Shown here: positions 7,322 through 64,000 of the stretch, piece after piece
Position numbering within the stretch: position 1 is the first letter of the stretch
Layout of the letters: each line of letters begins with the position of its first letter
Source of the DNA: a virus
Length of the DNA stretch: 64,000 bases
Reading direction: 5' to 3' (one strand)
IMG/VR virus record: IMGVR_UViG_3300042261_001186
Location: 32,001-96,000 of that record
Program-made: the position numbers and the translations under genes
Notes under the pieces: generated by a model
The model's database searches: none
What the model was told of the DNA's origin: nothing
What the model saw: only the letters and a program-made list of their open reading frames with translations

Positions 7322-8758
7322 TTAGTATTTACCTCTTGCTTCTCTTGATTTCTTACGATCTCTACGGAAGTCTTTTTCTTTATCAGTACGGTATTTCTGA
7401 ACTATTTCATCTTTCCTACCTTTTTTCTGTAAGTCTTTCTTTTCTTTCCAAGAAATTGCTTTACCTGTATCTTTAACATTCCAGATAGGTTTTATCCTAT
7501 CAAGTATAGTTGCAGTAGGTTCAATCAATTTCTCAATAACTTCAGAATTTTTGTAAGCAAAAACTGATTCATCCAAAGTTTCCTTGCAAACAGATGTTGT
7601 GTAGATACCTTTCATAGTTTCCTTGACTTGTTCTACAGTAACCATCTCTTTTGCTTTGGAACGTGACCATTTCCTACCTGAACCATGAGGACCACTAAAT
7701 AAAAAATCTGGATTTGATTTACCTTCACATATTAAGATACCATCTTTTTGATTAAATGGTATAATCATTTTCTGTCCAGTATAAGATGCAATTGCCCCTT
7801 TCCTTATAATCATATCTTTTGGGTCAATATAATTATGTATGGTTGAAATAATTTCATCAAATTTCACGATACCAATAATATCTTTAATAATATTTAACAT
7901 TGCCATTCTGTTCCATTCTGCATATTTTTGAGCAAATATCATATCAAACATATAATTAATCATATTTTCACCTACTAAATATTCTTTATTAACACCTAAT
8001 TTATATTTTTCTTTTAATTCTTGAATTTTTTTAGGTATTAAATTCATTGGAAAAGTATTCAATTTAATATCATCTAATTCTTTGTTATAAACATCTGGTG
8101 TGACAGACATTTGAGATTTAGCTACATTGGACCAATAATCATATATTTTTAAACCAAAATTTCTAGAACCTGAATGAATAGTAATCCAATAATCACCATT
8201 AGAATCAATACCAAGTTCCTGGAAATGATTTCCAGATCCGAGAGTCCCTATGGCATTCCAAAATTTATTTTCTTCAATTTTAATATCTTTTAATTTTTTG
8301 GATAACCATTTTTCATTGTATGTTGGTGCAATATATAATGTACCAAATTTTTTATTATATTCAGTTACAAAATTATCTGCAACCATTTGTACTTCATCAA
8401 AAGGAATATCAGTGAAAACTGGATTTTGATTAACATTGAATCCCATAGGTATTGAATTTTTAACATCAATATCAAATTGTTTCAAGTCTAATTTATATGT
8501 TCTTGAAAATTTAGCTGATAACATCCCACAACCAAGATCGCACCCAATGTGGGCTGGGTTTAACATTGTGTTGTTTAATGGCATACAAAATCCAATAACT
8601 ATTGATTTCCCAACATGTGTATCACATTGAATCCTTATTGGAACACCTTCAGAAACAGGTTGATCTAAAATAGCTTGAATTAAAGAATATGCTTCCAATT
8701 CAACATCATCTGTTAATATTTTACAATCTTTGTTATATTTACCTTTTAATTCTATCAT
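7322..8758 (-). CDS. rtcB: RtcB family RNA ligase
   Basis: DTHVG, GCDLGCGM, GTLGSGNHF, HSGSR, HNY, RKGA, PHGSGR, AYK motifs. Confidence 0.93.
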   Translation of the reverse strand: MIELKGKYNKDCKILTDDVELEAYSLIQAILDQPVSEGVPIRIQCDTHVGKSIVIGFCMPLNNTMLNPAHIGCDLGCGMLSAKFSRTYKLDLKQFDIDVKNSIPMGFNVNQNPVFTDIPFDEVQMVADNFVTEYNKKFGTLYIAPTYNEKWLSKKLKDIKIEENKFWNAIGTLGSGNHFQELGIDSNGDYWITIHSGSRNFGLKIYDYWSNVAKSQMSVTPDVYNKELDDIKLNTFPMNLIPKKIQELKEKYKLGVNKEYLVGENMINYMFDMIFAQKYAEWNRMAMLNIIKDIIGIVKFDEIISTIHNYIDPKDMIIRKGAIASYTGQKMIIPFNQKDGILICEGKSNPDFLFSGPHGSGRKWSRSKAKEMVTVEQVKETMKGIYTTSVCKETLDESVFAYKNSEVIEKLIEPTATILDRIKPIWNVKDTGKAISWKEKKDLQKKGRKDEIVQKYRTDKEKDFRRDRKKSREARGKY

Positions 8759-10746: not shown

Positions 10747-12159
10747 ATGATAACTAAATATTCAAAATATTTAAAACAAAACGAAGCTGATGATAATTCA
10801 GACTTTGATTATTTTGATGATTATGAGGAAACTAAACCTACATTGCCTAAAAAATCATCTCCAACTAAGAAAAATCTTTGGAATTTCAAAGGATTCATGG
10901 AACCTGAAGATCCAGATCAATTAGAACTTGATCTTGGTATAGAAAACCCTAGGAAGATAAAAGCTGCTGAGCTCAAAAAAATGGTTGATGATAAGGCTAA
11001 AAAAGAAAAAGAAGTTAGACAACCTACACATGTAGATACTGGAGATTATGTTGAAGTAGTGGATTTTGAAGATTTAAAAGAAGATCAATTAGAATTTTTA
11101 AAATCCGCACCTAATTTCTATGTTAGAGATATAGTTAATAGTAAAAGTTATCCATATGAAGTAGGAGAACCTTATGTAAACATAGGTTTCAGATCACCTT
11201 TCAAAATGTCTAGATTTAAAGTTATAGATAAATCTCATTGTAAGTACAAAATTTTATTTTTGAATTTTGATTTACCAGTAGATATACATGGTGAAAAAGA
11301 CGTCAATAATTTCTTCAGGGATTCAAAAACTATGTCTGAATTATTCAACAAACTTTTTGCAGAGAAAGAAGATGACATATTGGTTAGTTTTAATATGTAT
11401 GATGACATATATAGAATAAAATATGATTATTATATTAATGGTATATGTTTAAAAGATTATGATTTTGTATTTTTTGGACTCATATCTAATTTTACTTCAA
11501 TAGCAAAAATGCTCATAGATTATTTACAAAAACAGAAAATACCTTTCTTAAAATATGGTACTTTCAAAGAATATGATAACAAAGCCTTTGAATTACATTT
11601 ACTTGATTCTCTTGGATATCCATACATACCATCTATAATGGTTACGAAATTAACTAAAAAGATAATAGATATTGTTCAAAATGATTTTGAATTCCCTGTT
11701 ATAGTTAAGGATGTAAATACTAATAGAGGTGAAGGAGTATACAAAATAGATGATATGGAAGGGTTGTTGAAGACTTTCAGACGTAATAGTAGATTAATGT
11801 TAATACAAAAACATATACCTAATGATGGAGATTTTAGGGTTATAACAATTAAGAGAAAAGTAGAATTAGTTATAAAGAAGAAAAGGATAAGTAAAACTGA
11901 ATTCAGGGCTAATGTTGCTAGAGGTGGAAAGGCTATAAAAGGATCATTACCTCCACATATTCTTAAAATGTGTGAAGATATTTCTAAACATTTGGATAGT
12001 GATATTATTGGTTTTGATATAATACAAGATATGACTAATGGTGAATATTATGTAATGGAAACCAATGCTGGTCCACATTTTCCAACATTTTCTGTTATAT
12101 CTGGTGTGAATATACCAGAAATCATAGTTAATTATATAATGAGATTAATAGAAAAATAG
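10747..12159 (+). CDS. RimK-family ATP-grasp ligase with long N-terminal extension and targeting-like leader
   Basis: FPVIVK, RGEGV, IQKHI, DFRV, FRANVARGG, GFDI, METNAGP. Confidence 0.85.
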   Translation: MITKYSKYLKQNEADDNSDFDYFDDYEETKPTLPKKSSPTKKNLWNFKGFMEPEDPDQLELDLGIENPRKIKAAELKKMVDDKAKKEKEVRQPTHVDTGDYVEVVDFEDLKEDQLEFLKSAPNFYVRDIVNSKSYPYEVGEPYVNIGFRSPFKMSRFKVIDKSHCKYKILFLNFDLPVDIHGEKDVNNFFRDSKTMSELFNKLFAEKEDDILVSFNMYDDIYRIKYDYYINGICLKDYDFVFFGLISNFTSIAKMLIDYLQKQKIPFLKYGTFKEYDNKAFELHLLDSLGYPYIPSIMVTKLTKKIIDIVQNDFEFPVIVKDVNTNRGEGVYKIDDMEGLLKTFRRNSRLMLIQKHIPNDGDFRVITIKRKVELVIKKKRISKTEFRANVARGGKAIKGSLPPHILKMCEDISKHLDSDIIGFDIIQDMTNGEYYVMETNAGPHFPTFSVISGVNIPEIIVNYIMRLIEK

Positions 12160-18661: not shown

Positions 18662-20866
18662 ATGAAGATAAAAAAATTCAAACTAGATTTATCTGAAGGC
18701 CGTAAGCCTAAAGGTTATAACAGAGTGGTCAATGAGGGCAATATGCCAGAAGATCAAGGTTTCGAAGGTGAGGAAAGACCACCACAAGATGAACAGGCTC
18801 CAGTTGATGCTGAAGAAAGACCTGCAACTCCAGTGTTGGATAATTTTGGTATAGATTTAACTAAAAGGGCTGAAGAAGATAAATTGGATCCAGTCATTGG
18901 TAGACACAAAGAAATCATTGAATTGTCTTGGATACTTTGTCGTAAGAACAAGAATAACCCTGTTTTGATTGGTGATGCTGGTGTTGGTAAAACAGCTATA
19001 GTTGAAGGGTTAGCACAATTGATAGTTAAAGGAAAATGTCCTAGTAAACTGAAAGGTAAAAAGATTATGACACTTGACATTGGTAGTTTACTTGCTGGTG
19101 CAAAATATAGAGGACAATTTGAAGAAAGAGTAAAAGCTATTGTTCAAGAACTCTCTGCAAATAAAGAATGGGCAAATAGGGTTTTAGGATCAAAACAAGG
19201 TGATATTATTTTATTCATTGATGAAGTCCATATGATAGTTGGTGCTGGTGGTGAAACAGATGCTGCAAATATGTTGAAACCTGCTTTGGCTAGAGGTGAA
19301 CTTCAATGTATTGGTTGTACAACATTAAATGAATATAGAGAATCTATTGAAAAAGATAATGCTCTTGAAAGAAGATTCCAAAAAGTTATGGTTGAACAAA
19401 CTTCATTGGATGATACTTTGGAAATTTTGAAAAGAATTAAAGAAAGATATGAAGATTATCATATTGTTACTTATACTGATGATGCTTTGAAAGCTTGTGT
19501 TTCACTTGCTGATAAACATCTTCAAGATAGATTTTTCCCAGATAAGGCAATTGACTTATTGGATGAAGCTGGTGCTAAAGCCCACTTGGAAGATGCAAAT
19601 GTTCCAGAAGAAATTACTTCTTTGGAAGAAGATCTTGAAAAAATGAGTGCTGAAAAAATGCTTCATTTACAAGCAGGTAGATATGATGAAGCACAGGCAG
19701 TAAGACAAAAAGAAGTTGCTGCTGATGCTAAGTTGAAAGAAATGAGAGGCAAATGGGAAGAAGAAAATAACTTGAAAAGAGTTGAAATCACTGCTGATAG
19801 TGTTGCTGAAATTTTCTCTATTAAAACAGGTATTCCAGTTGAGAAATTCAATGAAGATGAAGGTGCAAAACTCATGAAAATGGGTGAAAATTTAAAGATG
19901 GATATCATTGGACAAGATGAAGCCATAGCTAAAATTTCTAAATGTGTAAAGAGAAATAGAGCAGGATTGAAAGATCCAAAAAAACCAATGGGTGTATTCC
20001 TTTTCTTAGGTCCAACAGGTGTTGGTAAAACACAAACCGTAAAATCTTTGGCTAAACATTTGTTTGGTTCAGAAGATAATATGATTAGGGTTGATATGAG
20101 TGAATATGCTGAAAGTCACAACAGATCAAGAATGATTGGTGCTCCTCCAGGATATGTTGGTTATGGTGAAGGTGGACAATTAACTGAAAAAGTTAGAAGA
20201 AAACCATATAGTGTTGTTCTTTTGGATGAAATTGAAAAAGCACACCCTGAAGTTTTGACTTTATTCTTACAGGCATTTGATGATGGTATTATGACTGATG
20301 GTTCAGGTAGAAAAGTTAGTTTCAAAAACACTATTATGATTATGACTTCTAATATTGGAACTAATGTTGTAAAACAAGCTAGACCAATGGTTGGTTATGT
20401 AAATGCGCCAGCTGAACAGAAAGAAGTTGAAATGAAAGATCAAATGAAAAAAGAATTGAACAAAAGACTTCCTGCTGAATTCTTGAATAGAATTGATGAT
20501 GTTATTATATTCAATTCTTTAGGTAAAGAAAATCTTTTCAAAATCATTGATATTGAAATTGGTCAATTGGTTAAAAGAATAAAAGAATTAGGTTATACAT
20601 TAACCTTAACAGAAAAAGCAAAAGAATTTCTTCTTGAAAAAGGATTTGATGAAAAAATGGGTGCAAGACCTTTAAAAAGAGCTATTCAAACATATATTGA
20701 AGATCCTTTAGCAGATTTAATGTTAAGTAAGAAAATAACAGATAATATTAACATTGATTATGATGAAGCAGCTAAGAAACTTTTGATAAATGGTGAACCA
20801 GTTAATGAAAGTTTCAATATGTTAGACACCGTTAAAAAATTTGGAGAATATAAAAAACTTTTCTAA
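18662..20866 (+). CDS. ClpA/ClpC-type AAA+ ATPase lacking the Clp N-domain
   Basis: DPVIGR, GDAGVGKT, FIDEVH, ALERRFQ, PDKAIDLLDEA, short M-domain, GPTGVGKT, DEIEKAH, GARPL. Confidence 0.92.
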   Translation: MKIKKFKLDLSEGRKPKGYNRVVNEGNMPEDQGFEGEERPPQDEQAPVDAEERPATPVLDNFGIDLTKRAEEDKLDPVIGRHKEIIELSWILCRKNKNNPVLIGDAGVGKTAIVEGLAQLIVKGKCPSKLKGKKIMTLDIGSLLAGAKYRGQFEERVKAIVQELSANKEWANRVLGSKQGDIILFIDEVHMIVGAGGETDAANMLKPALARGELQCIGCTTLNEYRESIEKDNALERRFQKVMVEQTSLDDTLEILKRIKERYEDYHIVTYTDDALKACVSLADKHLQDRFFPDKAIDLLDEAGAKAHLEDANVPEEITSLEEDLEKMSAEKMLHLQAGRYDEAQAVRQKEVAADAKLKEMRGKWEEENNLKRVEITADSVAEIFSIKTGIPVEKFNEDEGAKLMKMGENLKMDIIGQDEAIAKISKCVKRNRAGLKDPKKPMGVFLFLGPTGVGKTQTVKSLAKHLFGSEDNMIRVDMSEYAESHNRSRMIGAPPGYVGYGEGGQLTEKVRRKPYSVVLLDEIEKAHPEVLTLFLQAFDDGIMTDGSGRKVSFKNTIMIMTSNIGTNVVKQARPMVGYVNAPAEQKEVEMKDQMKKELNKRLPAEFLNRIDDVIIFNSLGKENLFKIIDIEIGQLVKRIKELGYTLTLTEKAKEFLLEKGFDEKMGARPLKRAIQTYIEDPLADLMLSKKITDNINIDYDEAAKKLLINGEPVNESFNMLDTVKKFGEYKKLF

Positions 20867-23631: not shown

Positions 23632-23709
23632 TTTTTTAAGTTTTTTTTTTATTATATATTTGTTTTAAAAAGTCATTTTTTTCCAAAATGATTTTAATTC
23701 AAATTATAA

Positions 23710-26181
23710 TTATCTTTGATTTAATCTTTTCAAATATGCATCTACTTGAGAATCACTGAGTTTTGTGTTATCAAATCCGCTATAGCTTTCTTTTAGCAGA
23801 GTAACCTTACCCATATTTTTCTTAGCATATTCATGGAGGTTTCTGGAATTCCAGAAGCTTTCCATTTTGTCCTCAGTCAGGTTAGTATAAAATTGTGCAC
23901 TGCTTATAACACTACCTTGAACTTCTGGTTTTAAACTTTCCCAAATCGGTCTGAGATCGCTGGGGATATTGTCAATTAAGATTTCATTAAAGCTTCTGTT
24001 TTGAACAGTCAACGCTCTAGACATAATTTTCAAAACTTCATTTTCTGATGTGTAATACTTGCTTTCGTTCATTGCAGCTACTACTTTTTCTTTATCTTGT
24101 GGAGAAAGACTATAGAATGCAGTCTTTTTCTTTTCTGACAAGAAACTTAAAAAATGTGGGTCTTTATCATCTGAGGCTTCTCTTTTTTTAGTCTCATTGA
24201 TTTGCTTCAATATCATCCTCTTTAATGCGTTTTTAGATTCAAAAATCCTGTTACCAATTGGTGACAATCTTGATTCTTGAATTTCTTGTACTTCACCAGT
24301 ATCTGACAATTTTACAACTGCAATACCATTATCAGTATTCATAGCTAAAATTTCACCAGTCTTGTCATCATCAATTTTAACAACTTGACCTGGAGTCAAT
24401 TCTACACCATCAATATCATCTTCAATTTCTTCAGCGTTTACGCCATCAACATCAAAATCATCTAAATCATCTTGACCTTGTGCCTGACCTTGTCCTTGAA
24501 CTTGACCCTGACCTCGGATTGGTTGAGCTTGACCTTGACCTTGAATTTGTCCTTGTCCTTGGACTTGACCCTGACCTTGTGGTTGAATCAATCCTTGACC
24601 TTGAACTTGACCTTGGCCTTGTCCCATTTGTGCTTGTCCTTGTGAATCTTCATCATAATATTTAGATACATTATTTGTTTTGAAATCTCCCATTCTTTGT
24701 TCAGGTGATTCAATTGTTTCTCTGAGCATACCTAAACCTTTTGAGTTTAATTTTTCAGAAATGTATCTACCATATTCTATGTTTTTATCCAATGCTTCTG
24801 CGATGTAATTTTCATAAGCAATTGAATCTGTTAAATTTTCTGCGATATATTCAGCATATTTAATGCTATTATCTAATTGTTCACCAATGTATTCTGAATA
24901 TTTAATACTATTGTCAACATGTTCAGCAACATATTCTGAGTATTTGATATTATTATCAACATGTTCAGCAACATATTCTGCATAAGCAATGTTCTTTTCT
25001 ACATTTTCAGCAATGTATTCTGAATAAGCAATATTCTTATCAAGATTTTCAGCTACATATTGTGAATAATCAATTGATTTGTCTACATTTTCAGCAATGT
25101 ATTCTGAATATTTGATAGTATGATCAACGTTTTCAGCAATATATTCTGAAAAATCTATGGATTTATCCAATGTTTCAGCAATGTAATTTTGATAATCAAT
25201 TGATTTATCAACTGATTCAGCTACATATTCTGAATAACCAATGGCTTTTTCCAAGCTTTCAGCCAAATAATCATTGTATTGAATAAGTTTGTCTGTTTTG
25301 CTTTGAAGTTTTTCTTCTAATTTTTCGTTGGTTTTTTTGATTGTTTTGTTTTCTTGAACTAATACCTGCATTGTTTCTGCAAGATAATCAAGATAAGAGG
25401 TTATTTTCTTAAAGCCCTCATTGAAGGATTCGTACTTCTCGTATAAATTATTAAGTTTTTTAGGATCAAAATTACCACTCTTTACGGTTTGACTAATTTC
25501 TCTTTTTGTTTTGGTAATTTCTTCTGTTAAATAATTTGAGTACCTTTCCATTTGTTCTTTTGTTATAAATTCATTTTTATCCATATTAAACAAATCGTTT
25601 ATTTTTGACTCATCGGATATTTCGAATATCCTAAAGTTAGCACTCTCATTGAATCCCAAAGATTCATTTAAAGTGCGAATTTCCATCTTTGCTGAGCTAA
25701 ATCCAGGATCAGCAACAGCATCATAAGTAAATAATTTTTTAATGGTAACATGACCATTAGATTCAGTTACACCAGCAGCTCTAGATGATACAAAAATTGG
25801 AAATCCATCATCGACCAAAGCTTGAGCTTCTTTACCCCAATGAGTATTTAACAATCTTATTTCTCCATCAACCCTATTCTTTTCCTTAACAAAAAAAGCC
25901 TTCTCAACAACGTGTGACACTCTTGAGAGGCTTGTATCGAAAACATCTGGGTGATCGAATTCACCATAAACAACTCCTAATGTTTTTTTTCTTTCTAGTA
26001 ACTCATCCAAATGAGGCAAAAAACCAGCTGAATCATAAATTCGCTCATTGCGATTCTTAACACCAAATTCTGTAAATACACCGCCCAAGAGTATATTCTT
26101 CTTTCCATTATTGGCATTAACAGATTCATTTAATTTTTGTAACCCACTGGTAGAATTTTCAATGATTAAAACATTCTTCAT
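23710..26181 (-). CDS. Prohead protease (gp21 family) fused to a scaffold/core-like region
   Basis: KNRNERIY, GEFDHP, VSH, VSSRAAG, YDAVADPGFSSA; then coiled coil, 14-aa repeats and QG repeats. Confidence 0.9.
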   Translation of the reverse strand: MKNVLIIENSTSGLQKLNESVNANNGKKNILLGGVFTEFGVKNRNERIYDSAGFLPHLDELLERKKTLGVVYGEFDHPDVFDTSLSRVSHVVEKAFFVKEKNRVDGEIRLLNTHWGKEAQALVDDGFPIFVSSRAAGVTESNGHVTIKKLFTYDAVADPGFSSAKMEIRTLNESLGFNESANFRIFEISDESKINDLFNMDKNEFITKEQMERYSNYLTEEITKTKREISQTVKSGNFDPKKLNNLYEKYESFNEGFKKITSYLDYLAETMQVLVQENKTIKKTNEKLEEKLQSKTDKLIQYNDYLAESLEKAIGYSEYVAESVDKSIDYQNYIAETLDKSIDFSEYIAENVDHTIKYSEYIAENVDKSIDYSQYVAENLDKNIAYSEYIAENVEKNIAYAEYVAEHVDNNIKYSEYVAEHVDNSIKYSEYIGEQLDNSIKYAEYIAENLTDSIAYENYIAEALDKNIEYGRYISEKLNSKGLGMLRETIESPEQRMGDFKTNNVSKYYDEDSQGQAQMGQGQGQVQGQGLIQPQGQGQVQGQGQIQGQGQAQPIRGQGQVQGQGQAQGQDDLDDFDVDGVNAEEIEDDIDGVELTPGQVVKIDDDKTGEILAMNTDNGIAVVKLSDTGEVQEIQESRLSPIGNRIFESKNALKRMILKQINETKKREASDDKDPHFLSFLSEKKKTAFYSLSPQDKEKVVAAMNESKYYTSENEVLKIMSRALTVQNRSFNEILIDNIPSDLRPIWESLKPEVQGSVISSAQFYTNLTEDKMESFWNSRNLHEYAKKNMGKVTLLKESYSGFDNTKLSDSQVDAYLKRLNQR
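24472..24645 (-). repeat. Gln-Gly low-complexity repeat in the protease/scaffold
   Basis: (QG)n with V/I/A interruptions. Confidence 0.85.
24742..25287 (-). repeat. About 13 tandem 14-aa (42-bp) repeats, consensus SIKYSEYIAENxDK
   Basis: Read directly from the translation. Confidence 0.9.
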
Positions 26182-55132: not shown

Positions 55133-55529
55133 GGGCTCGTATGGCTTAGACAGCGATGCGAAATAATGAATAAGCAAGTATCGTACTTTCTGTGATACGA
55201 TTAATAAATTGGCAGGAGACAAATAAATGCAAAAACATCAAAAATAGTGTCTGAAGATATGATGAGTATCTTCACTAGCGTGACAGGAAAGGTTTCTGAA
55301 ACCTTTTACGCGAAAGAAAGCGCCGAATTGGCCTTGGCATAACAGGAAAAAATCAGATACTCTGAATATTGGAGAGTTTTAACAGAGGATAAACTAAATT
55401 AAATAATTGATGAATTGACAATTTTTCAGAATACAAATTGTATATGAGTTGATACAGAAATTATCAAATAAACTTGTAGAAATTTTTTAAAATCATTGTT
55501 GGAAGCGGGTTCGAATCCCGCCGAGTCCA
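55133..55529 (+). ncRNA. ssrA: tmRNA
   Basis: Acceptor GGGCTCG/CGAGTCC with G3-U70 and discriminator A; T-arm GCGGGTTCGAATCCCGC; tag ORF ending ELALA*. Confidence 0.92.
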
Positions 55530-55636
55530 CAAAAGGAATGACAATTCTGGTTGTGATGTACACATAGATCAGTCAAATCATTCGCGTTTTAAAACGAAAC
55601 CGTGAACATAGCCAAGATAAGGAACGGATAAAATTT

Positions 55637-55662: not shown

Positions 55663-55797
55663 ATTTGGAAACATTTAATTAAATTTGCAATGTAGAATTA
55701 AAAACAAGGATGTATATTTTCAAGAAATTATTCTTAACAACTACATTACCATATGCAAATTCAATATAAAGATGAAAATATAGAATGGGTTTAAATT

Positions 55798-56094
55798 ATG
55801 TTCAAGAATATTTTAATAACTTTTTTAAAAGATAAGTACCCTAATTTTGATTTCATAATTTTCCCTTGGTCAAAGGATGATATGGATATCATAGAAAAAA
55901 AAGGACTTGGTAGAATGGATCCAAGGTACACAATTAATATGTATTTGGAGCATGCTAGTCAGGTTTATGCTCGTTCATCTAGAGAACAACAGACTGAAAT
56001 TTTGACACTGGCTGTGAATAGAGTGGATAAATTCATAAAAATGAAATGTAAAATAATTGAAGAATATAAAGATGAAAACATAGAATGGGTATAA
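55798..56094 (+). CDS. Hypothetical protein with DENIEWV tail
   Basis: ORF track. Confidence 0.6.
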   Translation: MFKNILITFLKDKYPNFDFIIFPWSKDDMDIIEKKGLGRMDPRYTINMYLEHASQVYARSSREQQTEILTLAVNRVDKFIKMKCKIIEEYKDENIEWV

Positions 56095-56141
56095 ATTATG
56101 TTTAAAGACGATGAATACAAGGATGAAAATATAGAATGGGT

Positions 56142-56447
56142 ATGAAAGAGGAATTCCTTAAAAAACTGAAAGAAAAATATGGGTTTGAAAAAATCTCACT
56201 TGATGGTAATGACTTAGTTATAAACAAGAACCCTAAAGCATTGAATGACATTAAAATATGGGTGGATTTGGATTTTGCTAAATATATGATGGAATTGACT
56301 GGTTCCAGCATGGAAATGGAAATAAAATGTCAAATGATACATGTTGATTGGGAACTCAAAAGGATGGATTATTTTTCAGAAAATCCTAAAAGTTGGTGGG
56401 TTGACAAAAAAGATATTTATGAAGATGAAAACATAGAATGGGTATGA
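56142..56447 (+). CDS. Hypothetical protein with DENIEWV tail
   Basis: ATGA overlap with the preceding mini-ORF; alternative start 56136. Confidence 0.6.
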   Translation: MKEEFLKKLKEKYGFEKISLDGNDLVINKNPKALNDIKIWVDLDFAKYMMELTGSSMEMEIKCQMIHVDWELKRMDYFSENPKSWWVDKKDIYEDENIEWV

Positions 56448-56548
56448 AAATAGCGGATTATTTGTATAAAAAATACTCAAACATCAGTTTCTATATCGTA
56501 GGAAACCGCCACATAAAAGAGTAGGAATAAAAAATAAATTTAAATTAT

Positions 56549-57364
56549 ATGGCAAAAAAGAGTGGAAAAGATTTCCAAAGAGAAGTCTTAAATGACCCTG
56601 AATGGGTAAAAGAACATGGTGATGTTGATAAATTTGAGGATATAGATTCGAAAGTTAATACCGAATATTCCTCTAAAAGAAAAGAAAAAACATCACTTAT
56701 AAACAAAAATAGATCTGGTAAATATCAATATGATTCTAGGTCAGCATTAAAAGGTGATACATTAATGTATAAAGGAAAAAAGAAAATAGTTTCTGAATAT
56801 AAAAATTATGATAGTGTAAGAAGCTTATTTAAACCACCTTCCATTTATGATATGAGTAAGTTTATGAAAACTAATGACTCAAACATTAGATATGCATCTG
56901 AACAAAAATTAGATTTTATATCTAATGATACTAAAAATTATTATGATAATTTTTTCAATCAAATCTTCAATGGTCCTAAAATTCACACATTAGAAACAAC
57001 TAATGAACCTATTCCAATTGGTTTTCTGGATTATGATTCTTTTTTAGAATTAATATGTTCTATTGAATTAGGGTTTGCATATAAAGAATTTGGTGTTGAA
57101 AAAATGAAAAATTTTGTTTGTTTGGACAATACAAATAAAAAATATATGAAAGATCTTGATTTAACAAAAGTCATAAACAAAGGTGATATAGTTAAATTAA
57201 GTATTTGGATTGATCCAACAACTAGATATTCTTACCTAATTTACACTTGTAATGATGAACCTATTTACATTCTTTCACAAAGAAAAAATGTTGCAAAAGC
57301 AAATTGTGCCTTTATTCCAAATTCTAAATTTGTAGTAAATGAAAAATCTAGAAAATCCATCTAA
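56549..57364 (+). CDS. Hypothetical protein, possible nuclease partner of the methyltransferase
   Basis: Convergent with the MTase; no motif firmly recognised. Confidence 0.45.
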   Translation: MAKKSGKDFQREVLNDPEWVKEHGDVDKFEDIDSKVNTEYSSKRKEKTSLINKNRSGKYQYDSRSALKGDTLMYKGKKKIVSEYKNYDSVRSLFKPPSIYDMSKFMKTNDSNIRYASEQKLDFISNDTKNYYDNFFNQIFNGPKIHTLETTNEPIPIGFLDYDSFLELICSIELGFAYKEFGVEKMKNFVCLDNTNKKYMKDLDLTKVINKGDIVKLSIWIDPTTRYSYLIYTCNDEPIYILSQRKNVAKANCAFIPNSKFVVNEKSRKSI

Positions 57365-57366
57365 AC

Positions 57367-57395
57367 AAAAAACCCCCTTAATTGGGGGTTTTTTT
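57367..57395. terminator. Bidirectional terminator
   Basis: AAAAAACCCCC-TTAATT-GGGGGTTTTTTT. Confidence 0.8.
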
Positions 57396-58494
57396 ATTTC
57401 ACCAAATTCTTGAATATCGCTTCTAAAACATTAACAACTATTGAATTTCCTGCCAATTTTATTAATGCACTATCACTCATAGTCCCTTCAACTTTATTAA
57501 AATCACTATCTGTGAACCCCATTAATTTCCAACATTCTCTTGGTATAAGTTGTCTTACTTCACCATTTTCATAAACCTTTATTCTAGATAATGCACCAGT
57601 TGCAGTTATAGTTGGAGATATACTATCAGTATGATAAACCTTATTTTCACTTGCAAAATTTGTATAACCAACTAAATCAAATCCTCTTATACCATTCTTA
57701 GTTTTTTTAGTTTCTATTACACTTGGATAATATTTCTTAAAATCAAAATAATATTTCTTATCAACATTTTTAGACATAATATCACCAATAGTTAAATTAG
57801 TTAATTCATTTTGTTCTGGAATAATATATTCTTGATCATCTATTATAGAAACCATATAAGCTCTTTCTCTATTCTGTGGTATATCAAAATAAGAAGCTTT
57901 CAATTTGAAATCATAATTCCTATATCCTAATTTTGTGAGATTCTCTTTCCAAGTTTCAAATCCTGTTTTGTGTTTATCACTCATTATTGATGCGACATTT
58001 TCCATTAATAAATATTTTGGTAATCTATTTTCAACTTTTAATTCATTAAGTAGTCTATCTACTTGCCACAATAAAGAACTTGATTTACCTTCAAATAAAC
58101 CTCTACCACTTCCTTGGTTACTTAAATCCTGACATGGAAATGAATATGTTAATAAATCATGGTCTGGCATATCAGTTGATTTGAAATCTAATATGGAACC
58201 AAGATTGTTTATGTTTTTATTAGAGACATAAAGTTTCTTTGCTTTTTCAAAATTCATTTTATCAGTATTTGTAGGTGTTTTAGTATCTAAAGAAAATGTA
58301 AATTTTTTAAGATAATCATATATTTCTTCTTTTGAATCTGTAGTTTCTTCATATGAATGATGGACAAGGTTATATGACATTATGGCATTGACATCCCATT
58401 CTGATACTGCAACTACTTCAAAGTCAGCTTTTATATTTTTAAGTGCTTTGTGTTGAGAACCAATACCAGCAAATAATTCAATTACTTTTATCAT
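57394..58494 (-). CDS. C5-cytosine DNA methyltransferase, M.SssI/M.MpeI-like (probable CpG specificity)
   Basis: FAGIG, DLLTYSFPCQDLS, LPKYLLMENV, QNRER, GNSI; target recognition region KKTK..GY..F.SE..VY..PTITATGA.SRIK. Confidence 0.9.
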   Translation of the reverse strand: MIKVIELFAGIGSQHKALKNIKADFEVVAVSEWDVNAIMSYNLVHHSYEETTDSKEEIYDYLKKFTFSLDTKTPTNTDKMNFEKAKKLYVSNKNINNLGSILDFKSTDMPDHDLLTYSFPCQDLSNQGSGRGLFEGKSSSLLWQVDRLLNELKVENRLPKYLLMENVASIMSDKHKTGFETWKENLTKLGYRNYDFKLKASYFDIPQNRERAYMVSIIDDQEYIIPEQNELTNLTIGDIMSKNVDKKYYFDFKKYYPSVIETKKTKNGIRGFDLVGYTNFASENKVYHTDSISPTITATGALSRIKVYENGEVRQLIPRECWKLMGFTDSDFNKVEGTMSDSALIKLAGNSIVVNVLEAIFKNLVK

Positions 58495-58551
58495 AAAATA
58501 TTTTTTATTTTATATAAATAATTTCAAGAGGAAAGTTTAATATATAGTGAT

Positions 58552-58818
58552 ATGATTAAACTATTTGAGGAATTTAATAAAAAGAAAGAAATAGACCCTT
58601 CAGATGCTTCTAAATGGAAAGTTGGAGATACAATTATTTGTACAAACAAAGGTAGAGGTAAAAGATTAGAAATAGGAAAAGAATATAAGATATTTGACAT
58701 AACTAAACCTTCTGGACAAGCAGTAATGATAAAAGGAGATTATACTTATTATAGTACAAAATATTTTATTAAGAAATTCAAAGATAAAATAAAAGAAGAA
58801 GACATAGAATGGTTCTAA
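58552..58818 (+). CDS. Leader + SH3-like domain + EEDIEWF tail
   Basis: MIKLFEEF; WKVGDTIIC; IKEEDIEWF*. Confidence 0.62.
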   Translation: MIKLFEEFNKKKEIDPSDASKWKVGDTIICTNKGRGKRLEIGKEYKIFDITKPSGQAVMIKGDYTYYSTKYFIKKFKDKIKEEDIEWF

Positions 58819-59348
58819 ATTATAAAAAATATAATGAATCTATTTACGAAGATTTTAAAATTGGTGATAGAGTCATCACGAAAGATTTATGGAAATTTAG
58901 TAATAAGTATGCAACTATTGTAAGGATAGATCATGGTGGTGATAAATATTGTATAGAATTTGATGAATTTATTGATGGACATAGTTGTTCAGGTAAGGGG
59001 AAAAAAGGACATTGTACTAATGCAAGTATTAAAAATTTAATTAAAATTGAAAAAGAAGAACCTATAAAAGAAGAAGATATAGAATGGTTTGAATCACTTA
59101 AACCAATGAATGAAAGTTTTGAGATAGGTGACATAGTGGTTTGCTTGGAGACAAAGAATGACAATAAAGGTAGGTTGAATTTCTTGGAAGGTAAAGAATA
59201 TCAATTGTTAAGGGGAATGGGAGACAAATATTTGTTTATTCAAGGGGAACAGAGAAACCTTGAATTATTTAGAAAAGATACTATACACAAATATTTTAAA
59301 AAAGTTGATATAAGTAATATAAAAGAAGAAGATATAGAATGGTTCTAA
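58809..59348 (+). CDS. Two-module protein, each module SH3-like and ending EEDIEWF
   Basis: YNE/S..FKIGD..EEDIEWFE/S..MNE/SFEIGD..EEDIEWF*. Confidence 0.65.
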   Translation: MVLNYKKYNESIYEDFKIGDRVITKDLWKFSNKYATIVRIDHGGDKYCIEFDEFIDGHSCSGKGKKGHCTNASIKNLIKIEKEEPIKEEDIEWFESLKPMNESFEIGDIVVCLETKNDNKGRLNFLEGKEYQLLRGMGDKYLFIQGEQRNLELFRKDTIHKYFKKVDISNIKEEDIEWF

Positions 59349-59692
59349 ATTATAAACAATTTAATGAAGGTAGATTTAATCCTTTTAGAAAAAAAATAAA
59401 TAATTTTATACCAAAACCACCAAAGTTTGTTAAACATTCAGATATAGATCCATATGGGGAAGAAGATTGGAATGATGGTAAATATCAAATGGGTGAAGAT
59501 CTTGTTGCTGTTAGAAATTTATATTATACCAAAGATGATGCCCCATTAATAACTAAAAACAAAGTATATAAAATCATAGATAAATTTGTGGAATATGAAC
59601 ATATAAGATATACTTTTATAAGTGATAAGGGGATAGAACACACATTGACAGAGGATTCAATGAAATTGAATTTTAAAAAGATACCACTTTAA
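59339..59692 (+). CDS. Leader + tag + SH3-like domain
   Basis: MVLNYKQFNE/G; HSDIDPYGEEDW. Confidence 0.62.
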   Translation: MVLNYKQFNEGRFNPFRKKINNFIPKPPKFVKHSDIDPYGEEDWNDGKYQMGEDLVAVRNLYYTKDDAPLITKNKVYKIIDKFVEYEHIRYTFISDKGIEHTLTEDSMKLNFKKIPL

Positions 59693-60002
59693 AGTCTTTC
59701 CTATATATTTTGGCATATTTATTAGGAAAATCATATTTAGATTTTATCACAATATAATCATCTTTTATTTCTACAACATTAACAATATAAAGTCTTTCTT
59801 TTTCCATAGTAGAGGTTCCTTCAATTTTATCATATAAATTTCCAGTATCATCATTCCAGACTGGTGAATAAAAAATTAATTTTATATCATTAAGTGGTAC
59901 TATTTCATTTTCTCCTCTAACGACAACATCATCATCCCAATTTTCTTCATCAAATGGGTCATTCTCATTATATTGTTCAAATGTTTTAATCTTTGATTTC
60001 AT
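59673..60002 (-). CDS. Leader + tag hypothetical protein
   Basis: KIKTFEQYNE/NDPFDEENW. Confidence 0.6.
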   Translation of the reverse strand: MKSKIKTFEQYNENDPFDEENWDDDVVVRGENEIVPLNDIKLIFYSPVWNDDTGNLYDKIEGTSTMEKERLYIVNVVEIKDDYIVIKSKYDFPNKYAKIYRKDFKVVSF

Positions 60003-60288
60003 ATTGATTGTCTTTTAGTTTAAAATAAAAGTTATTAGCTTTGAATATTGTATATTTTCCAGGTTCTGTGTAATTTACAATTTCATGGTTTGTTTTTTCA
60101 TATTTTTTAATTACTTCAGCATTCAAATATTCTAAATAATAAATTTTAGTGTATTCAATATGACGACTTCTTTCACAATCATCTATAGTTTTATAAAATT
60201 CAATATTAACAAGTCCTTTTACATATACATGTTTTGGATTATCATCCCAATTCTCTTCATCATAAGGATCTAATTCATTGTATACAGA
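59986..60288 (-). pseudogene. Fourth module of the 60289 polyprotein, cut off by an in-frame TAA
   Basis: LN*SVYNELDPYDEENW + 100 open codons with no ATG. Confidence 0.75.
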
Positions 60289-61134
60289 TTAATTTAAACC
60301 AAATTCTCCTTTAAGAAACATAATTCCATTTCTATAATAACTATTTCTATTTGGATTTTTATCAAAAAATTCCTCTGCATCATTTCTAATAATTTCTATT
60401 ATTTCTTCTTTAGTTAACCAATGTCCTTTCCAAGCATATTGAGGTTTAATTTTAGGCCAAGATTCTTCTCCCCAATTCTCTTCATTATATGGGTCTATTT
60501 CATTGGATTCATTAACTATTCTATCAAAATGAATATCAAAATCATATTTAGCAAAAACATATTTATATGGGTGTCCTTGTACAATTCCTATCATAACAAT
60601 ATATTGATTATCTTCTTTGAAAATTTCATAATCTCTGTTACTGTGGAATATCCAATGTAAACCATTAGTAGTATGAACATCTCTTTTACAATGAGCATAA
60701 TGTTTTTTGTCTTCATCCCAATTCTCTTCATCATAAGGATCTATTTCATTATGTGTACTTTCAATGAAAAGTTCAGGATTTTCCATATATTTACCATTTT
60801 TAAGGTCATTAAAAGAGTTTTTGAGATATATCCTATTTAAGGAATAGTAGATTTCATGAATGAAATCCTGTTTTTGGTTCGGTGTCAATCCAATTGTATC
60901 AGACAATGAATCTAGGTAATGCTTTGTTTTTATGTAAACTTCAGTTTTATCGATTGTAGTCATGTATTCTTCTTGAAGATCGAATAGACCTTTTATTTCA
61001 TCATCATTCAAACCTATTCTCCTAAGCCAATTTACTAATCTTTCTTTATATCGTCTTGGTTCATATTGACTTTCCCTCCAATTTTCTTCATTGTAAGGAT
61101 CTATTTCATTGAAATCTTCAAATAGTTTAATCAT
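60289..61134 (-). CDS. Three-module tagged polyprotein
   Basis: Three NEIDPYxEENW tags after FE/FNE, FIE/S and VNE/S. Confidence 0.75.
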   Translation of the reverse strand: MIKLFEDFNEIDPYNEENWRESQYEPRRYKERLVNWLRRIGLNDDEIKGLFDLQEEYMTTIDKTEVYIKTKHYLDSLSDTIGLTPNQKQDFIHEIYYSLNRIYLKNSFNDLKNGKYMENPELFIESTHNEIDPYDEENWDEDKKHYAHCKRDVHTTNGLHWIFHSNRDYEIFKEDNQYIVMIGIVQGHPYKYVFAKYDFDIHFDRIVNESNEIDPYNEENWGEESWPKIKPQYAWKGHWLTKEEIIEIIRNDAEEFFDKNPNRNSYYRNGIMFLKGEFGLN

Positions 61135-61367
61135 TTCTTTATAAAATACTTTTTAGTCTCCTCATCACTGAAAAGTAATTCTTTACCCCTATCATTAAAA
61201 ACAGAATTAAAATGTTGTTTAGTATATTGAGCAGGAACTATTCTATCTATCATATAAGTATTACCTTTTGTAAAATTAAAATAAAACTCTTTAGCAATTA
61301 GTAAATCACCTTCATTATAAGTTTCATCACCCCATTCTTCTTCATTGAAAGGGTCTACTTCACTAAT
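61131..61367 (-). pseudogene. Out-of-frame terminal module of the 61363 polyprotein
   Basis: SEVDPFNEEEWGDETYNEGDLLIAK..KKYFIKK*, +1 frame after VN*. Confidence 0.7.
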
Positions 61368-63870
61368 TCACATTTGGTTTCATATAATTTAATGTCTTAT
61401 CCAATTTTTCTTTATCTAAATATTTTTCTATTTCTTCTTCGGTGGCTCTCCTGTGCCATCTATCATCATAGTTTGTTTGGCAAGTTGGTACTTTTCCTTT
61501 GTTTGGAGACCTTTTGTCAACTTCCCATATGTACCTTCTGCTAGCAACACCATTGTAGTGCATATGTAGGACAACATGAATCATAGGTTTACATTGGCCA
61601 AAACCGACTATGAAAGGGGAATACATAATGTAAAAAAATTCTTCATCATCATCCCAATCATCTTCACCATATGGGTCAACTTCACTATATACTGATTCTT
61701 TGAACATTTCTGGTTTATCTATATATCTTCCACCTTTTAAATACAACCAATGATTGTTTACATAAAGTCTATATAAACTTCCAAAAATATCTGTTAAAAA
61801 TTGTAATCTAGGATTACCATCAGTTAATATTGAACCATATAAATCTAATTTATCTGCTAATGTATCAACATATTTCCTGAACCTATCATATGCTATGTCA
61901 TATGGACTATTTTCTTTATTATAATAAAGTTCATATTCTTTAAAAAGATCTTTTATTTCATCTTCATCAAGTCCTATTTTTCTTAACCAATCTATGACTT
62001 TTTCATCTTTTCCTTTAGGTATATAATTATATTTCCAATTTTCTTCTTCAAATGGGTCAACATCACTATGATTTTCATTTATTCTTTTTGTGAAACGTGG
62101 ATCAGTGTACCCACCATCATACCAATAATGATCTTTATTTTTTATTTTTATCATTAATACGCCTTCGTCATTCACATACTTGTTTTCTATTTCATAGATA
62201 TCTTTATTATTGAAATAACTATTAGGTGTTGCTAACCATTTAACTTTGTCACCTATTTTAAAATTATCATAATCTATGTCATCCCAATCTTCTTCATTAT
62301 AAGGATCTACTTCTTCTTTGTTTTCATTTATAACATTTAAAATTGTGAATGAACTAATAGGTATTTCATAAAATTCCATTTCTCCTGCTGTTTTAAATTT
62401 ATCAAAAGTGAATTCAATATAATCTCCTTTTTGTTCAGTTATATTAATAATATATTTTTGATTTCTGTTTAAATGTAGATAATTGCCACCATGATAATAT
62501 ACATAAAAATCCTGGTCTTGATTATTCCAGTTGTATCTATAGGCAGGTGTTTCTTGATCTTTCAACATTAAAATTTCACATTCTCCAATAGGTATTTCAA
62601 CATCATTCCAATCTTCTTCACTATATGGGTCTACATCTAAATGACTTTCATTTATTATTTTGGTAAAATAATTACCTATATTACCATAATGGAAAATTAC
62701 TCTAGCATTAGCATCATTCCTCACATAAAGATAATGATCTGGATGTAGTTTACTAAGTTCAATTACTTCATATGTCTTACCTACATAAAAATGTAACCCT
62801 CCTATTTGTCTGATACATTTCAATTTGTCACCGACTTTGTATGTTGGTCCATATTCCCAGTTATCAACATCATCTATTTTTTTACCTAAAACCCACCATT
62901 TATCATTACTTTCATTGAGTTTTTTGATAAATAATTCAGGATGCCAACCTCTGTCAATATCAAATTTATTATTTTTCTTAACTGGTTCTACATTAATATA
63001 ATATGTTTTAAATCCATGTGGTTTATAAACATCAAGTACAACATAATCATATCCTTTTTGTAAATATTTTGGTCCCATATTATGTCCATCAATACAAGTG
63101 ACTATATCACCTATATCAAAAGGACCTTTTTCTTCTATTTCATTCCAATCTTCTTCACTAAATGAATCGACATCCAAATGTGATTCATTGAGTTTCTTTT
63201 TTTGTAATTTGAAATCGAATTCAACAAGTTCCCACTTTTCAATCCACCTACCTTGACTGATAAAGTATTTTATAGTTTTGTAATATTCTGGGTCCCTTAT
63301 TTCCTTTATTTCCCCCATATATACACCATCCCAATCATAAATTATATCTCCTATGTTTATTTCAGTATCTATATTTATTTCAGATATTTCTTCATTTCCA
63401 TCCCAATTATCCTCACCTAATGGATCAATATCCAAATGTGATTCAAGTAAATCTTCAATCCAATCTTCTTCACCATATGGATCATTTTCACTTATTACTG
63501 AAGTTGGTTTTATCAATATGTCATCTAAATTCAAAAACCTTTCACGTATGGTTCCATATCTACTTTTGTAATTTATTCTTATGGGGTATTTAATTAAATG
63601 TGTTGACCCTACTTCTTTATCTTTAGTTTTTTCAAAAGAAATTGGAATTATTTTTTCATCAACAAAAAGTCTTATGTTATGTCTGTCCACAGGGTGTTCT
63701 TTACCATAAAAATGAACTTCTTCTAATGTAAAATTTTCATTTAAATAATATATGACTTTATCCAAATCTCCAAACTTATCATAAATGTCCATTATCTTGA
63801 CTTTCATAACTCGTTCTTTGTCAAAATCAAAACTTAATTGAGTTTCATATGTTTTGAAACGTTTAATCAT
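61363..63870 (-). CDS. 835-aa tagged polyprotein of about 8 small modules
   Basis: Seven D[PS]xxE[ED]xW tags; linkers LLE/S, LNE/S x2, INE/S, INE/N x2, FKE/S. Confidence 0.8.
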   Translation of the reverse strand: MIKRFKTYETQLSFDFDKERVMKVKIMDIYDKFGDLDKVIYYLNENFTLEEVHFYGKEHPVDRHNIRLFVDEKIIPISFEKTKDKEVGSTHLIKYPIRINYKSRYGTIRERFLNLDDILIKPTSVISENDPYGEEDWIEDLLESHLDIDPLGEDNWDGNEEISEINIDTEINIGDIIYDWDGVYMGEIKEIRDPEYYKTIKYFISQGRWIEKWELVEFDFKLQKKKLNESHLDVDSFSEEDWNEIEEKGPFDIGDIVTCIDGHNMGPKYLQKGYDYVVLDVYKPHGFKTYYINVEPVKKNNKFDIDRGWHPELFIKKLNESNDKWWVLGKKIDDVDNWEYGPTYKVGDKLKCIRQIGGLHFYVGKTYEVIELSKLHPDHYLYVRNDANARVIFHYGNIGNYFTKIINESHLDVDPYSEEDWNDVEIPIGECEILMLKDQETPAYRYNWNNQDQDFYVYYHGGNYLHLNRNQKYIINITEQKGDYIEFTFDKFKTAGEMEFYEIPISSFTILNVINENKEEVDPYNEEDWDDIDYDNFKIGDKVKWLATPNSYFNNKDIYEIENKYVNDEGVLMIKIKNKDHYWYDGGYTDPRFTKRINENHSDVDPFEEENWKYNYIPKGKDEKVIDWLRKIGLDEDEIKDLFKEYELYYNKENSPYDIAYDRFRKYVDTLADKLDLYGSILTDGNPRLQFLTDIFGSLYRLYVNNHWLYLKGGRYIDKPEMFKESVYSEVDPYGEDDWDDDEEFFYIMYSPFIVGFGQCKPMIHVVLHMHYNGVASRRYIWEVDKRSPNKGKVPTCQTNYDDRWHRRATEEEIEKYLDKEKLDKTLNYMKPNVN

Positions 63871-64000
63871 AAACCTATATATTAAATTTTTTAAAGAACT
63901 TTTTTAATTTTATATATACATATAATAAAAAATAATCAATTTAATTATGTATATCTGGAACGACATTATATCACGCGATAAGCATTCTAAAATATTTGAA

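Follow-up and report, generated by a model that had tools for sequence, protein, structure and literature searches.

Why would a phage string small variable domains together in long open reading frames (ORFs) and part them with one recurring acidic peptide? This question is raised by positions 59673 to 63870 of a 64,000-nucleotide stretch of DNA (hereafter the window), which corresponds to positions 32001-96000 of a single 130,397-bp viral contig (IMG/VR record IMGVR_UViG_3300042261_001186; G+C, 28.6%). Judged from sequence, its source is a huge T4-type freshwater phage, uncultured and related to LR756501.1, the 735,411-bp genome of an uncultured phage whose portal protein shares 89.5% identity with that of the contig. 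Read on the minus strand from 63870 to 59673, the locus comprises an 835-amino-acid (aa) ORF, a frame lacking a start (frame A), a 281-aa ORF, a second such frame (frame B) and a 109-aa ORF; a 394-aa ORF with a similar tag and module make-up lies just outside the window. We found that all of these are concatenated members of one fast-evolving lineage-specific gene family, whose basic gene consists of an N-terminal leader, an acidic peptide with a terminal Trp (the tag) and one small domain, often an SH3-like barrel. Each string junction combines the end of a leader, [LIV]-N-E-[SN], a spacer, H-x-[DE]-[IV], and the tag, DP[YFL]xEE[DN]W, in a linker predicted to be disordered. The parts of the locus are:

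61363..63870, minus strand: 835-aa ORF with leader MIKRFKTYE, an N-terminal domain, then eight modules parted by linker and tag
63460..63483, minus strand: tag DPYGEEDW, aa 130-137 of the 835-aa ORF, C-terminal-type tag of the N-terminal domain
63403..63426, minus strand: tag DPLGEDNW, aa 149-156 of the 835-aa ORF, preceded by LLES-HLDI
63181..63192, minus strand: junction LNES, aa 227-230 of the 835-aa ORF
63145..63168, minus strand: tag DSFSEEDW, aa 235-242 of the 835-aa ORF
62908..62919, minus strand: junction LNES, aa 318-321 of the 835-aa ORF
62857-62874, minus strand: degenerate tag DDVDNW, residue 333 of the 835-aa ORF, after LNES 318-321
62644..62655, minus strand: junction INES, aa 406-409 of the 835-aa ORF
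62608..62631, minus strand: tag DPYSEEDW, aa 414-421 of the 835-aa ORF
62320..62331, minus strand: junction INEN, aa 514-517 of the 835-aa ORF
62284..62307, minus strand: tag DPYNEEDW, aa 522-529 of the 835-aa ORF
62071..62082, minus strand: junction INEN, aa 597-600 of the 835-aa ORF
62035..62058, minus strand: tag DPFEEENW, aa 605-612 of the 835-aa ORF
61654..61677, minus strand: tag DPYGEDDW, aa 732-739 of the 835-aa ORF, preceded by FKES-VYSEV
61131..61367, minus strand: frame A, 78 codons from stop to stop, ISEV-DPFNEEEW and an SH3-like module
60289..61134, minus strand: 281-aa ORF with leader MIKLFEDFNE and three tag+module units
60505..60516, minus strand: junction VNES, aa 207-210 of the 281-aa ORF
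59986..60288, minus strand: frame B, 100 codons, SVYNEL-DPYDEENW and a module
59673..60002, minus strand: 109-aa ORF with leader MKSKIKTFEQYNEN, tag DPFDEENW and one module

Seven tags of the 835-aa ORF fit D[PS][YFL]xE[ED][DN]W (residues 130, 149, 235, 414, 522, 605 and 732), and the spacing from linker (LNES, INES, INEN, LLES or FKES) to tag is 4-7 residues. The 281-aa ORF, which is 39% identical to aa 597-746 of the 835-aa ORF, carries tags at residues 12, 132 and 214 and is made of a helical unit, an SH3-variant unit and a YAWKGHW module. The first-pass annotation had described the longer ORF as repeats of linker, tag and small domain and the shorter one as three tag+module units; both descriptions were borne out by the ORFs, tags and linkers found, but frames A and B had been missed within the span that it gave. 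Frame A contains no ATG, GTG or TTG start; it lies in the +1 frame relative to the 835-aa ORF and stops at a TGA that overlaps the start of the 281-aa ORF (ATGA). Frame B also lacks a start codon; it takes up the reading frame of the 281-aa ORF immediately after the TAA of that ORF. Read-through, frameshifting or re-initiation could yield products from these frames, or they could be pseudogenes of very recent origin. An alternative code reading TGA as Trp, which would open frame A, was rejected: TGA ends many coupled genes, and the portal, major capsid protein and protease genes are uninterrupted under table 11.

Comparison of strings with single-domain members identified the linkers as internal copies of leader plus tag. 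Stand-alone members begin with M-I-K-x-F-x-x-F-x-E, often followed by H-x-D-[IV]-DPY, and internal linkers read K-K-[LI]-N-E-[SN]-H-x-[DE]-[IV]-DPY. Two homologues, P0016 and P0003, each plainly repeat their own N-terminal leader as the internal linker, and whole internal leaders occur in further ORFs of the contig, for example at residue 254 of a 489-aa ORF, where the leader is kept in LR756501. Therefore, the ORFs of 835 and 281 aa each represent an in-frame fusion of genes. Furthermore, module order differs between the window and the homologue P0005: P0005 reads ...EFGLNETNEIDPYGEEDW... and the window reads ...EFGLN-TAA-SVYNELDPYDEENW..., the TAA standing at the Glu of the L-N-E site of P0005. 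Contigs from two studies are identical at frame A, frame B, the TAA of the 281-aa ORF and the frame change before frame A. Because of the P0005 module order, the TAA at the Glu and the conservation of the stop and frame change across studies, fusion and fission occur exactly at the linker junctions.

A HMMER search with the 835-aa ORF against 1.84 billion representatives retrieved only 22 proteins (E <= 0.001). Three belong to the contig itself, and all 19 homologues from outside the contig have the plan of leader, tag and module. In the related genome LR756504, none of 928 ORFs carries the tag, and the leader is found in 10 of 245 ORFs, compared with 1.6 in shuffled sequences. The leader is therefore older than the tag and separable from it.

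Cutting the strings at each tag yielded 18 tag-led modules of 68-142 residues and the 129-residue N-terminal domain of the 835-aa ORF; that ORF comprises nine segments and the 281-aa ORF three. Alignment of 15 of the modules revealed the common pattern x-[IV]-G-D-x-[IV]-x-C ... G-x-x-Y-x-[IV]-x-D ... [FW] ... [RK]-F-x-K-K. The AlphaFold2 model of one module, built from this alignment, is a five-strand beta-barrel with a predicted local distance difference test score (pLDDT) of 71.9, and both flanking tags score about 46-51. The top 50 Foldseek matches in the PDB were mostly SH3 or Tudor domains at weak significance (best E 0.066, range 0.07-0.3; template modelling score 0.43-0.54; none at E <= 0.001). 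When the whole 835-aa ORF was modelled, AlphaFold2 returned confident beads separated by low-pLDDT stretches (1-19, 125-169, 207-235, 319-341, 408-423, 516-532 and 598-621), which coincide with the leader, linkers and tags. Sequence searches of Pfam, PHROGs, NCBIfam and the PDB assigned the strings to no named family; the only matches were those of one module to phrog_7571 and phrog_4927, both of unknown function. A tblastn search of a phage collection with the 835-aa ORF gave no match; weak matches to modules came up only in a separate genome search. A kinship of the SH3-like modules with a barrel-like stretch of the scaffold ORF described below was tried and rejected (hhalign probability 0.5%). 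A single complex prediction of the module alignment with residues 118-167 of the 835-aa ORF, in which the tags were placed as module ligands, scored 0.03 and gave no answer.

The tag itself is far from a chance pattern. Its strict DNA pattern occurs 15 times in the window, compared with 0.00 expected from 100 shuffles, and a six-frame search of the contig found 47 copies. Of the contig's ORFs, 35 bear the tag, about one in five. The codons of these 47 copies vary synonymously at every degenerate position (GAT 33 and GAC 14, CCT 24 and CCA 20, four Gly codons), as they also do in LR756501; therefore, selection acts on the peptide. In LR756501, 60 matches to the tag pattern were found and none with a reversed control, and an ORF scan counted 103 tags, spread over 88 of the 1025 ORFs and so marking about one protein in eleven. 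Matches in LR756501 were obtained for 19 of the 35 tag ORFs of the contig, and a 42-residue partial match was the one LR756504 counterpart of any tag-bearing ORF. A scan of IMG/VR returned at least 115 stretches, of which 80 listed rows represent 33 contigs and 12 metagenome identifiers, so that the tag is present in at least 33 IMG/VR contigs; its range takes in one clade of huge freshwater phages. Among the matches listed are 228 unique tag ORFs, 28 of which bear two to six tags, and in complete ORFs the tag is internal in 107 cases, C-terminal in 85 and N-terminal in 48. Between orthologues the tag is present or absent as an indel, as in the 52-residue insert of a 300-aa ORF. Taken as a separate element, the tag is probably a portable short linear motif, serving as a docking or address peptide.

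The tag is attached to proteins of diverse kinds. On predicted membrane proteins it follows a basic juxtamembrane stretch. In LR756501, a tag-linked string of 1233 aa contains a cytidine/dCMP deaminase domain and a PolyA_pol/HD nucleotidyltransferase of the CCA-adding type (both by Pfam), and a 287-aa tag protein carries a GNAT domain. We observed a CCA-adding-type nucleotidyltransferase/HD at the end of an SH3-like tag-linked string in two phages:

864-4565 of L005 (LR756501): nucleotidyltransferase string, assigned by Pfam
4258-6606 of L113 (IMG/VR): nucleotidyltransferase string, assigned by eye

A second motif, the sister tail [YI]-K-E-E-[DN]-I-E-W-x-stop, accompanies the tag in this genome (window 55771-59348; genome 99557-106064). 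The six-frame search found 21 copies of its core EE[DN]IEW, 19 of them at the stop. The corresponding DNA, tataaaGAGGAGgatATAGAATGGnTATGA, combines a Shine-Dalgarno-like tract, the next ATG and a stop, and two mini-ORFs consist of hardly anything beyond this tail. It ends a set of coupled genes beside the strings:

58552..59692, plus strand: three coupled small genes (88, 179 and 117 aa) with SH3-like modules of the same family as the strings

The genes end in EEDIEWF, whose DNA contains the ATG of the next gene, and the 88-aa ORF has a weak ProQ_C-like match in Pfam (E 0.044).

Could the junctions be protease sites? The contig encodes a T4-type head module with a gp23-like capsid protein, a gp20-like portal and a protease-scaffold fusion:

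23710..26181, minus strand: 823-aa head-maturation protease with scaffold-like repeats, candidate processing enzyme

Residues 1-255 of this ORF match PHROG 207 'head maturation protease' (E 2.5e-28), in agreement with the gp21 homologue that had been claimed for the window, and a Pfam S77 match reached 19.9 bits, under the cut-off of 27. The scaffold region contains about 16 Y[IVL]AE repeats, arranged as tandem 13-residue units (Y-S-E-Y-I-A-E-N-V-D-K-S-I), and a Gln/Gly-rich stretch, and the fusion of protease and scaffold is kept in LR756501 and LR756504. Candidate sites of the junction type lie at KLNES (aa 16-20) and, right behind the catalytic domain, at TLNES/FNES (aa 170-180); [LIV]NE[SA] at both borders of the catalytic domain is common to the contig, LR756501 and LR756504. 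Genome-wide, [LIVFM]NE[SNGA] occurs 45 times in 183 ORFs compared with 12.3 +/- 3.2 in 200 shuffles, a 3.6-fold excess, with 16 copies in the first 20 residues, 8 adjoining tags and 5 in the protease-scaffold ORF. The first 20 residues contain such a site in 16 of the 183 ORFs, against 1.1 in shuffles. The wider pattern [LIVMF]xE[SNGAT] adjoins 14 of 26 internal tags of the contig but only 8.9% of background windows.

T4 gp21 cuts after L/I-X-E, and in the 10-residue capsid targeting sequence (CTS) of T4 residues 4 and 7 are needed for targeting and residues 8 and 10 for processing (PMC9026906). In the contig, aromatic residues occupy positions P7 and P4 at frequencies of 0.56 and 0.69 in N-terminal sites and of 0.34 and 0.21 in internal sites, with the same trend in LR756501 and LR756504. 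The exact T4 register (residues 4 and 7 aromatic, 8 hydrophobic and 10 Glu) was found at 4 of 183 N-termini, compared with 0.06 in shuffles. By the T4 rules, this pattern indicates that N-terminal copies could both target and be cut and that internal copies could only be cut; by analogy, a division of labour in which one leader targets and the junctions serve only as cleavage points fits the distribution of aromatics. We also observed a 178-aa paralogue of the head-protease domain in LR756501 (11314-11850, minus strand; 44% identity) with the tail ...NELDPYGEENWSE, which contains the tag. Its presumed catalytic His and Ser are replaced, and the presence of the tag on this altered paralogue hints at a connection with the head.

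The proposed mechanism would then run as follows. The N-terminal leader would act like the T4 CTS and bring the whole string into the prohead core, where a head-maturation protease of the gp21 type would cleave each [LIV]-x-E junction behind its Glu and free single domains still bearing the tag. We hold this leader-driven targeting and junction cutting, drawn by analogy with T4, as a tentative explanation, at somewhat under an even chance. Its support is coherent though indirect, and also includes the predicted disorder of the linkers and an octamer, described below, that precedes both the head genes and the 835-aa ORF. Several observations weigh against it. The modules are acidic (isoelectric point 4.2-5.3 in 18 of 23 segments; the entire 835-aa ORF, 4.8), unlike the internal proteins of T4, which are basic (PMC9026906). 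The leader of the 835-aa ORF ends in T-Y-E, with no canonical [LIV]-x-E, and that of the 394-aa ORF likewise has no canonical site; the leader site of the 281-aa ORF is F-N-E. Among the IMG/VR matches listed, a site [LIVMF]xE[SNGAT] adjoins only 34 of 124 internal tags (27%), four times background. About 35 kb separate the string genes, which stand among small variable genes, from the head module. Transmembrane helices are predicted for 2 of the 35 tag ORFs of the contig and for 13 of the 228 among the IMG/VR matches listed, and these proteins, some of which also carry the leader, are unlikely capsid cargo. The deaminase and nucleotidyltransferase borne on strings could act in the cytoplasm without being packaged. 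Finally, the tag is independent of position, about as often C-terminal as internal. The earlier suggestion that the tag sits near new N-termini of cleaved cargo stands only in part: the 85 C-terminal copies, the membrane proteins, the enzyme strings and the acidic modules do not agree with it.

The same freedom of position favors a different use of the tag, in which the strings would remain uncleaved beads on a string and the tag would dock soluble, membrane and enzyme proteins to one cytoplasmic hub, belonging to the phage or to its host, NE[SN] being a relic of the fused leader. Such docking could accommodate tags on predicted membrane proteins and beside a deaminase, a CCA-type nucleotidyltransferase and a GNAT domain, as well as the gain and loss of the tag as an indel and its disorder in the models. 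A mere relic should have decayed, yet [LIV]NE[SN] persists between modules no longer recognizably alike, and it matches the flanking sites of the head protease itself. Furthermore, no hub could be singled out among the 48 tag-less ORFs common to the contig and LR756501 and absent from LR756504, too many for the reader of the tag to be picked by presence and absence. We regard the hub as doubtful, though a possibility to be taken seriously. Selection could instead keep the junctions at the level of nucleic acid, as recombination joints and sites of translational coupling with the peptide as a by-product. The sister tail is indeed constrained as DNA: Ile is ATA in 20 of 21 copies, with a GAGGAG tract ahead of the tail, GAATGG contains the start codon of the following gene, and the stop overlaps. 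Several C-terminal DP tags finish with TGGGAGG, a short distance from the ATG that follows. Module order varies between relatives, and a stop and a start are found inside an ORF that is continuous elsewhere. However, the synonymous variation of the DP-tag codons in both the contig and LR756501 argues otherwise, as do internal tags without a downstream start, and a 24-nucleotide joint with 4-6 variable positions offers poor homology. This explanation is decidedly improbable for the string junctions.

Site-specific viral proteases use invariant motifs of 8-12 residues in polyprotein linkers, and every tag begins with D-P, so that the tag could itself be the processing signal, either as the site of a dedicated protease other than that of the head or through a self-labile Asp-Pro bond; leaders, linkers and C-terminal tails would then all be lost at the tag. 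No second protease was found beside the string genes, and the contig encodes no ClpP. Tags are absent from the processing borders of the protease-scaffold ORF itself, and trimming the 1-4 residues that follow a C-terminal tag would serve no evident purpose; we consider a role as processing signal very unlikely. A role of the tag as a Clp-type degron was set aside as well: a Clp-like ATPase with two AAA domains is present, but ClpP is missing from the contig. An artefact, with small genes falsely merged or a chimeric contig, deserves mention because repeated tags can create false joints among metagenome contigs, and joints seen among such contigs were rejected as rearrangements as they consist of tag repeats. 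At the strings themselves, contigs of an independent lake study show 0 differences across the ORF junctions, and 19 more proteins come from other assemblies, which leaves an artefact hardly credible.

In its widest form, the reading as targeted and cut head cargo would make DP[YFL]GEE[DN]W a position-independent address label of one huge-phage lineage, forming with leader and junctions a tag-and-cut code for loading, cutting and delivering swappable domains and enzymes. This generalization is unlikely in our estimate. If true, such a code would bring dozens of small domains and enzymes, single or strung, into a giant capsid and deliver them with the DNA. Huge phages have hundreds of genes to which no function is assigned, and leader and tag mark a substantial share of them; if these signals are an address and a cutting code, a large part of this dark proteome would fall into one class, delivered cargo or clients of one hub, from sequence alone. 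The two signals would also provide an engineering handle, a portable tag with a cleavable junction comparable to the use of the T4 CTS in protein delivery. Fused and split forms at identical junctions, for their part, show how such phages shuffle small domains.

A promoter-like octamer precedes the 835-aa ORF and many other genes:

63876..63883, minus strand: promoter-like octamer AATATATA, 5 nucleotides before the ATG of the 835-aa ORF

This octamer is 10-fold enriched upstream of genes (40 genes) and is common to the major capsid protein, protease and portal genes, with another copy at 23653-23660. It also lies 5 nucleotides before the ATG of the 394-aa and 88-aa ORFs, about nine genes in all having this spacing, which suggests leaderless or near-leaderless transcripts of a late type. 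Elsewhere in the window we observed a phage tmRNA-like gene (55133-55530, plus strand; ARAGORN) with the tag peptide GKNQIL, and a C-5 cytosine DNA methyltransferase (57394-58494, minus strand; Pfam E 1.2e-60) between small-gene arrays. An RtcB RNA ligase (7322-8758), a RimK-like ATP-grasp ligase with a leader-like N-terminus (10747-12159) and a two-AAA Clp-type ATPase (18662-20866) were also identified.

Public sequencing runs containing the DNA of the window are freshwater and lake metagenomes from two studies. With the portals of LR756504, LR756502 and LR745206, that of the contig shares about 50% identity, and 104 of the 183 ORFs have a match in LR756501 and 30 in LR756504. The contig is rated 100% complete at 130 kb, yet its closest relative measures 735 kb; it is either a fragment or a much smaller relative. 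PMC7162821 describes a 735-kb genome, the largest in the 'Mahaphage' clade and with predicted Bacteroidetes hosts; the text of that paper does not give the accession LR756501.

How do the strings compare with known systems? No description of the tag or of module strings was found in the searchable literature, where capsid-targeting papers were judged by title or abstract. The cargo-loading peptide of encapsulins is a short, portable, disordered terminal peptide that marks unrelated proteins for a shell of HK97 fold, and its resemblance to the tag is offered as an analogy only. The inner-body and ejection proteins of the giant phages phiKZ and SPN3US form a large packaged proteome, which the prohead protease (gp175 or gp245) cuts after the Glu of a three-residue motif, several times per propeptide (PMC10052503). 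Their substrates, as presented there, have long discarded N-terminal propeptides rather than retained module strings, and PMC10052503 reports no portable common tag for them. Polyvalent proteins of phages and conjugative elements (Iyer et al. 2017, PMC5512222) are closer: in each, 2-15 unrelated domains share one polypeptide, which is predicted to accompany the DNA and in some cases is freed by a peptidase. GNAT and Pol-beta nucleotidyltransferase domains like theirs occur in LR756501 strings. Unlike polyvalent proteins, the strings of the window have no embedded peptidase and no characteristic conflict domain such as MPTase, ART or kinase (no match in Pfam, NCBIfam or the PDB), and a fixed junction peptide of leader plus tag is not described in the main text of PMC5512222.

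The likeness to the T4 CTS, which gp21 removes from IPI-III and Alt, extends to several features: a short leader in which, at some N-termini, two aromatics stand three positions from each other ahead of a hydrophobic P3 and a P1 Glu; a nearby gene for a protease of the gp21 type; and variable small proteins with a common leader. C-terminal processing also exists in T4, in Alt, and an Asp in place of the Glu blocks processing there. In contrast to T4, leader ends are repeated inside long ORFs to form strings of up to nine modules, an acidic-Trp tag is added, and the family, known here from its sequences, is far larger. The nearest known concepts are thus the T4 CTS system and the polyvalent proteins.

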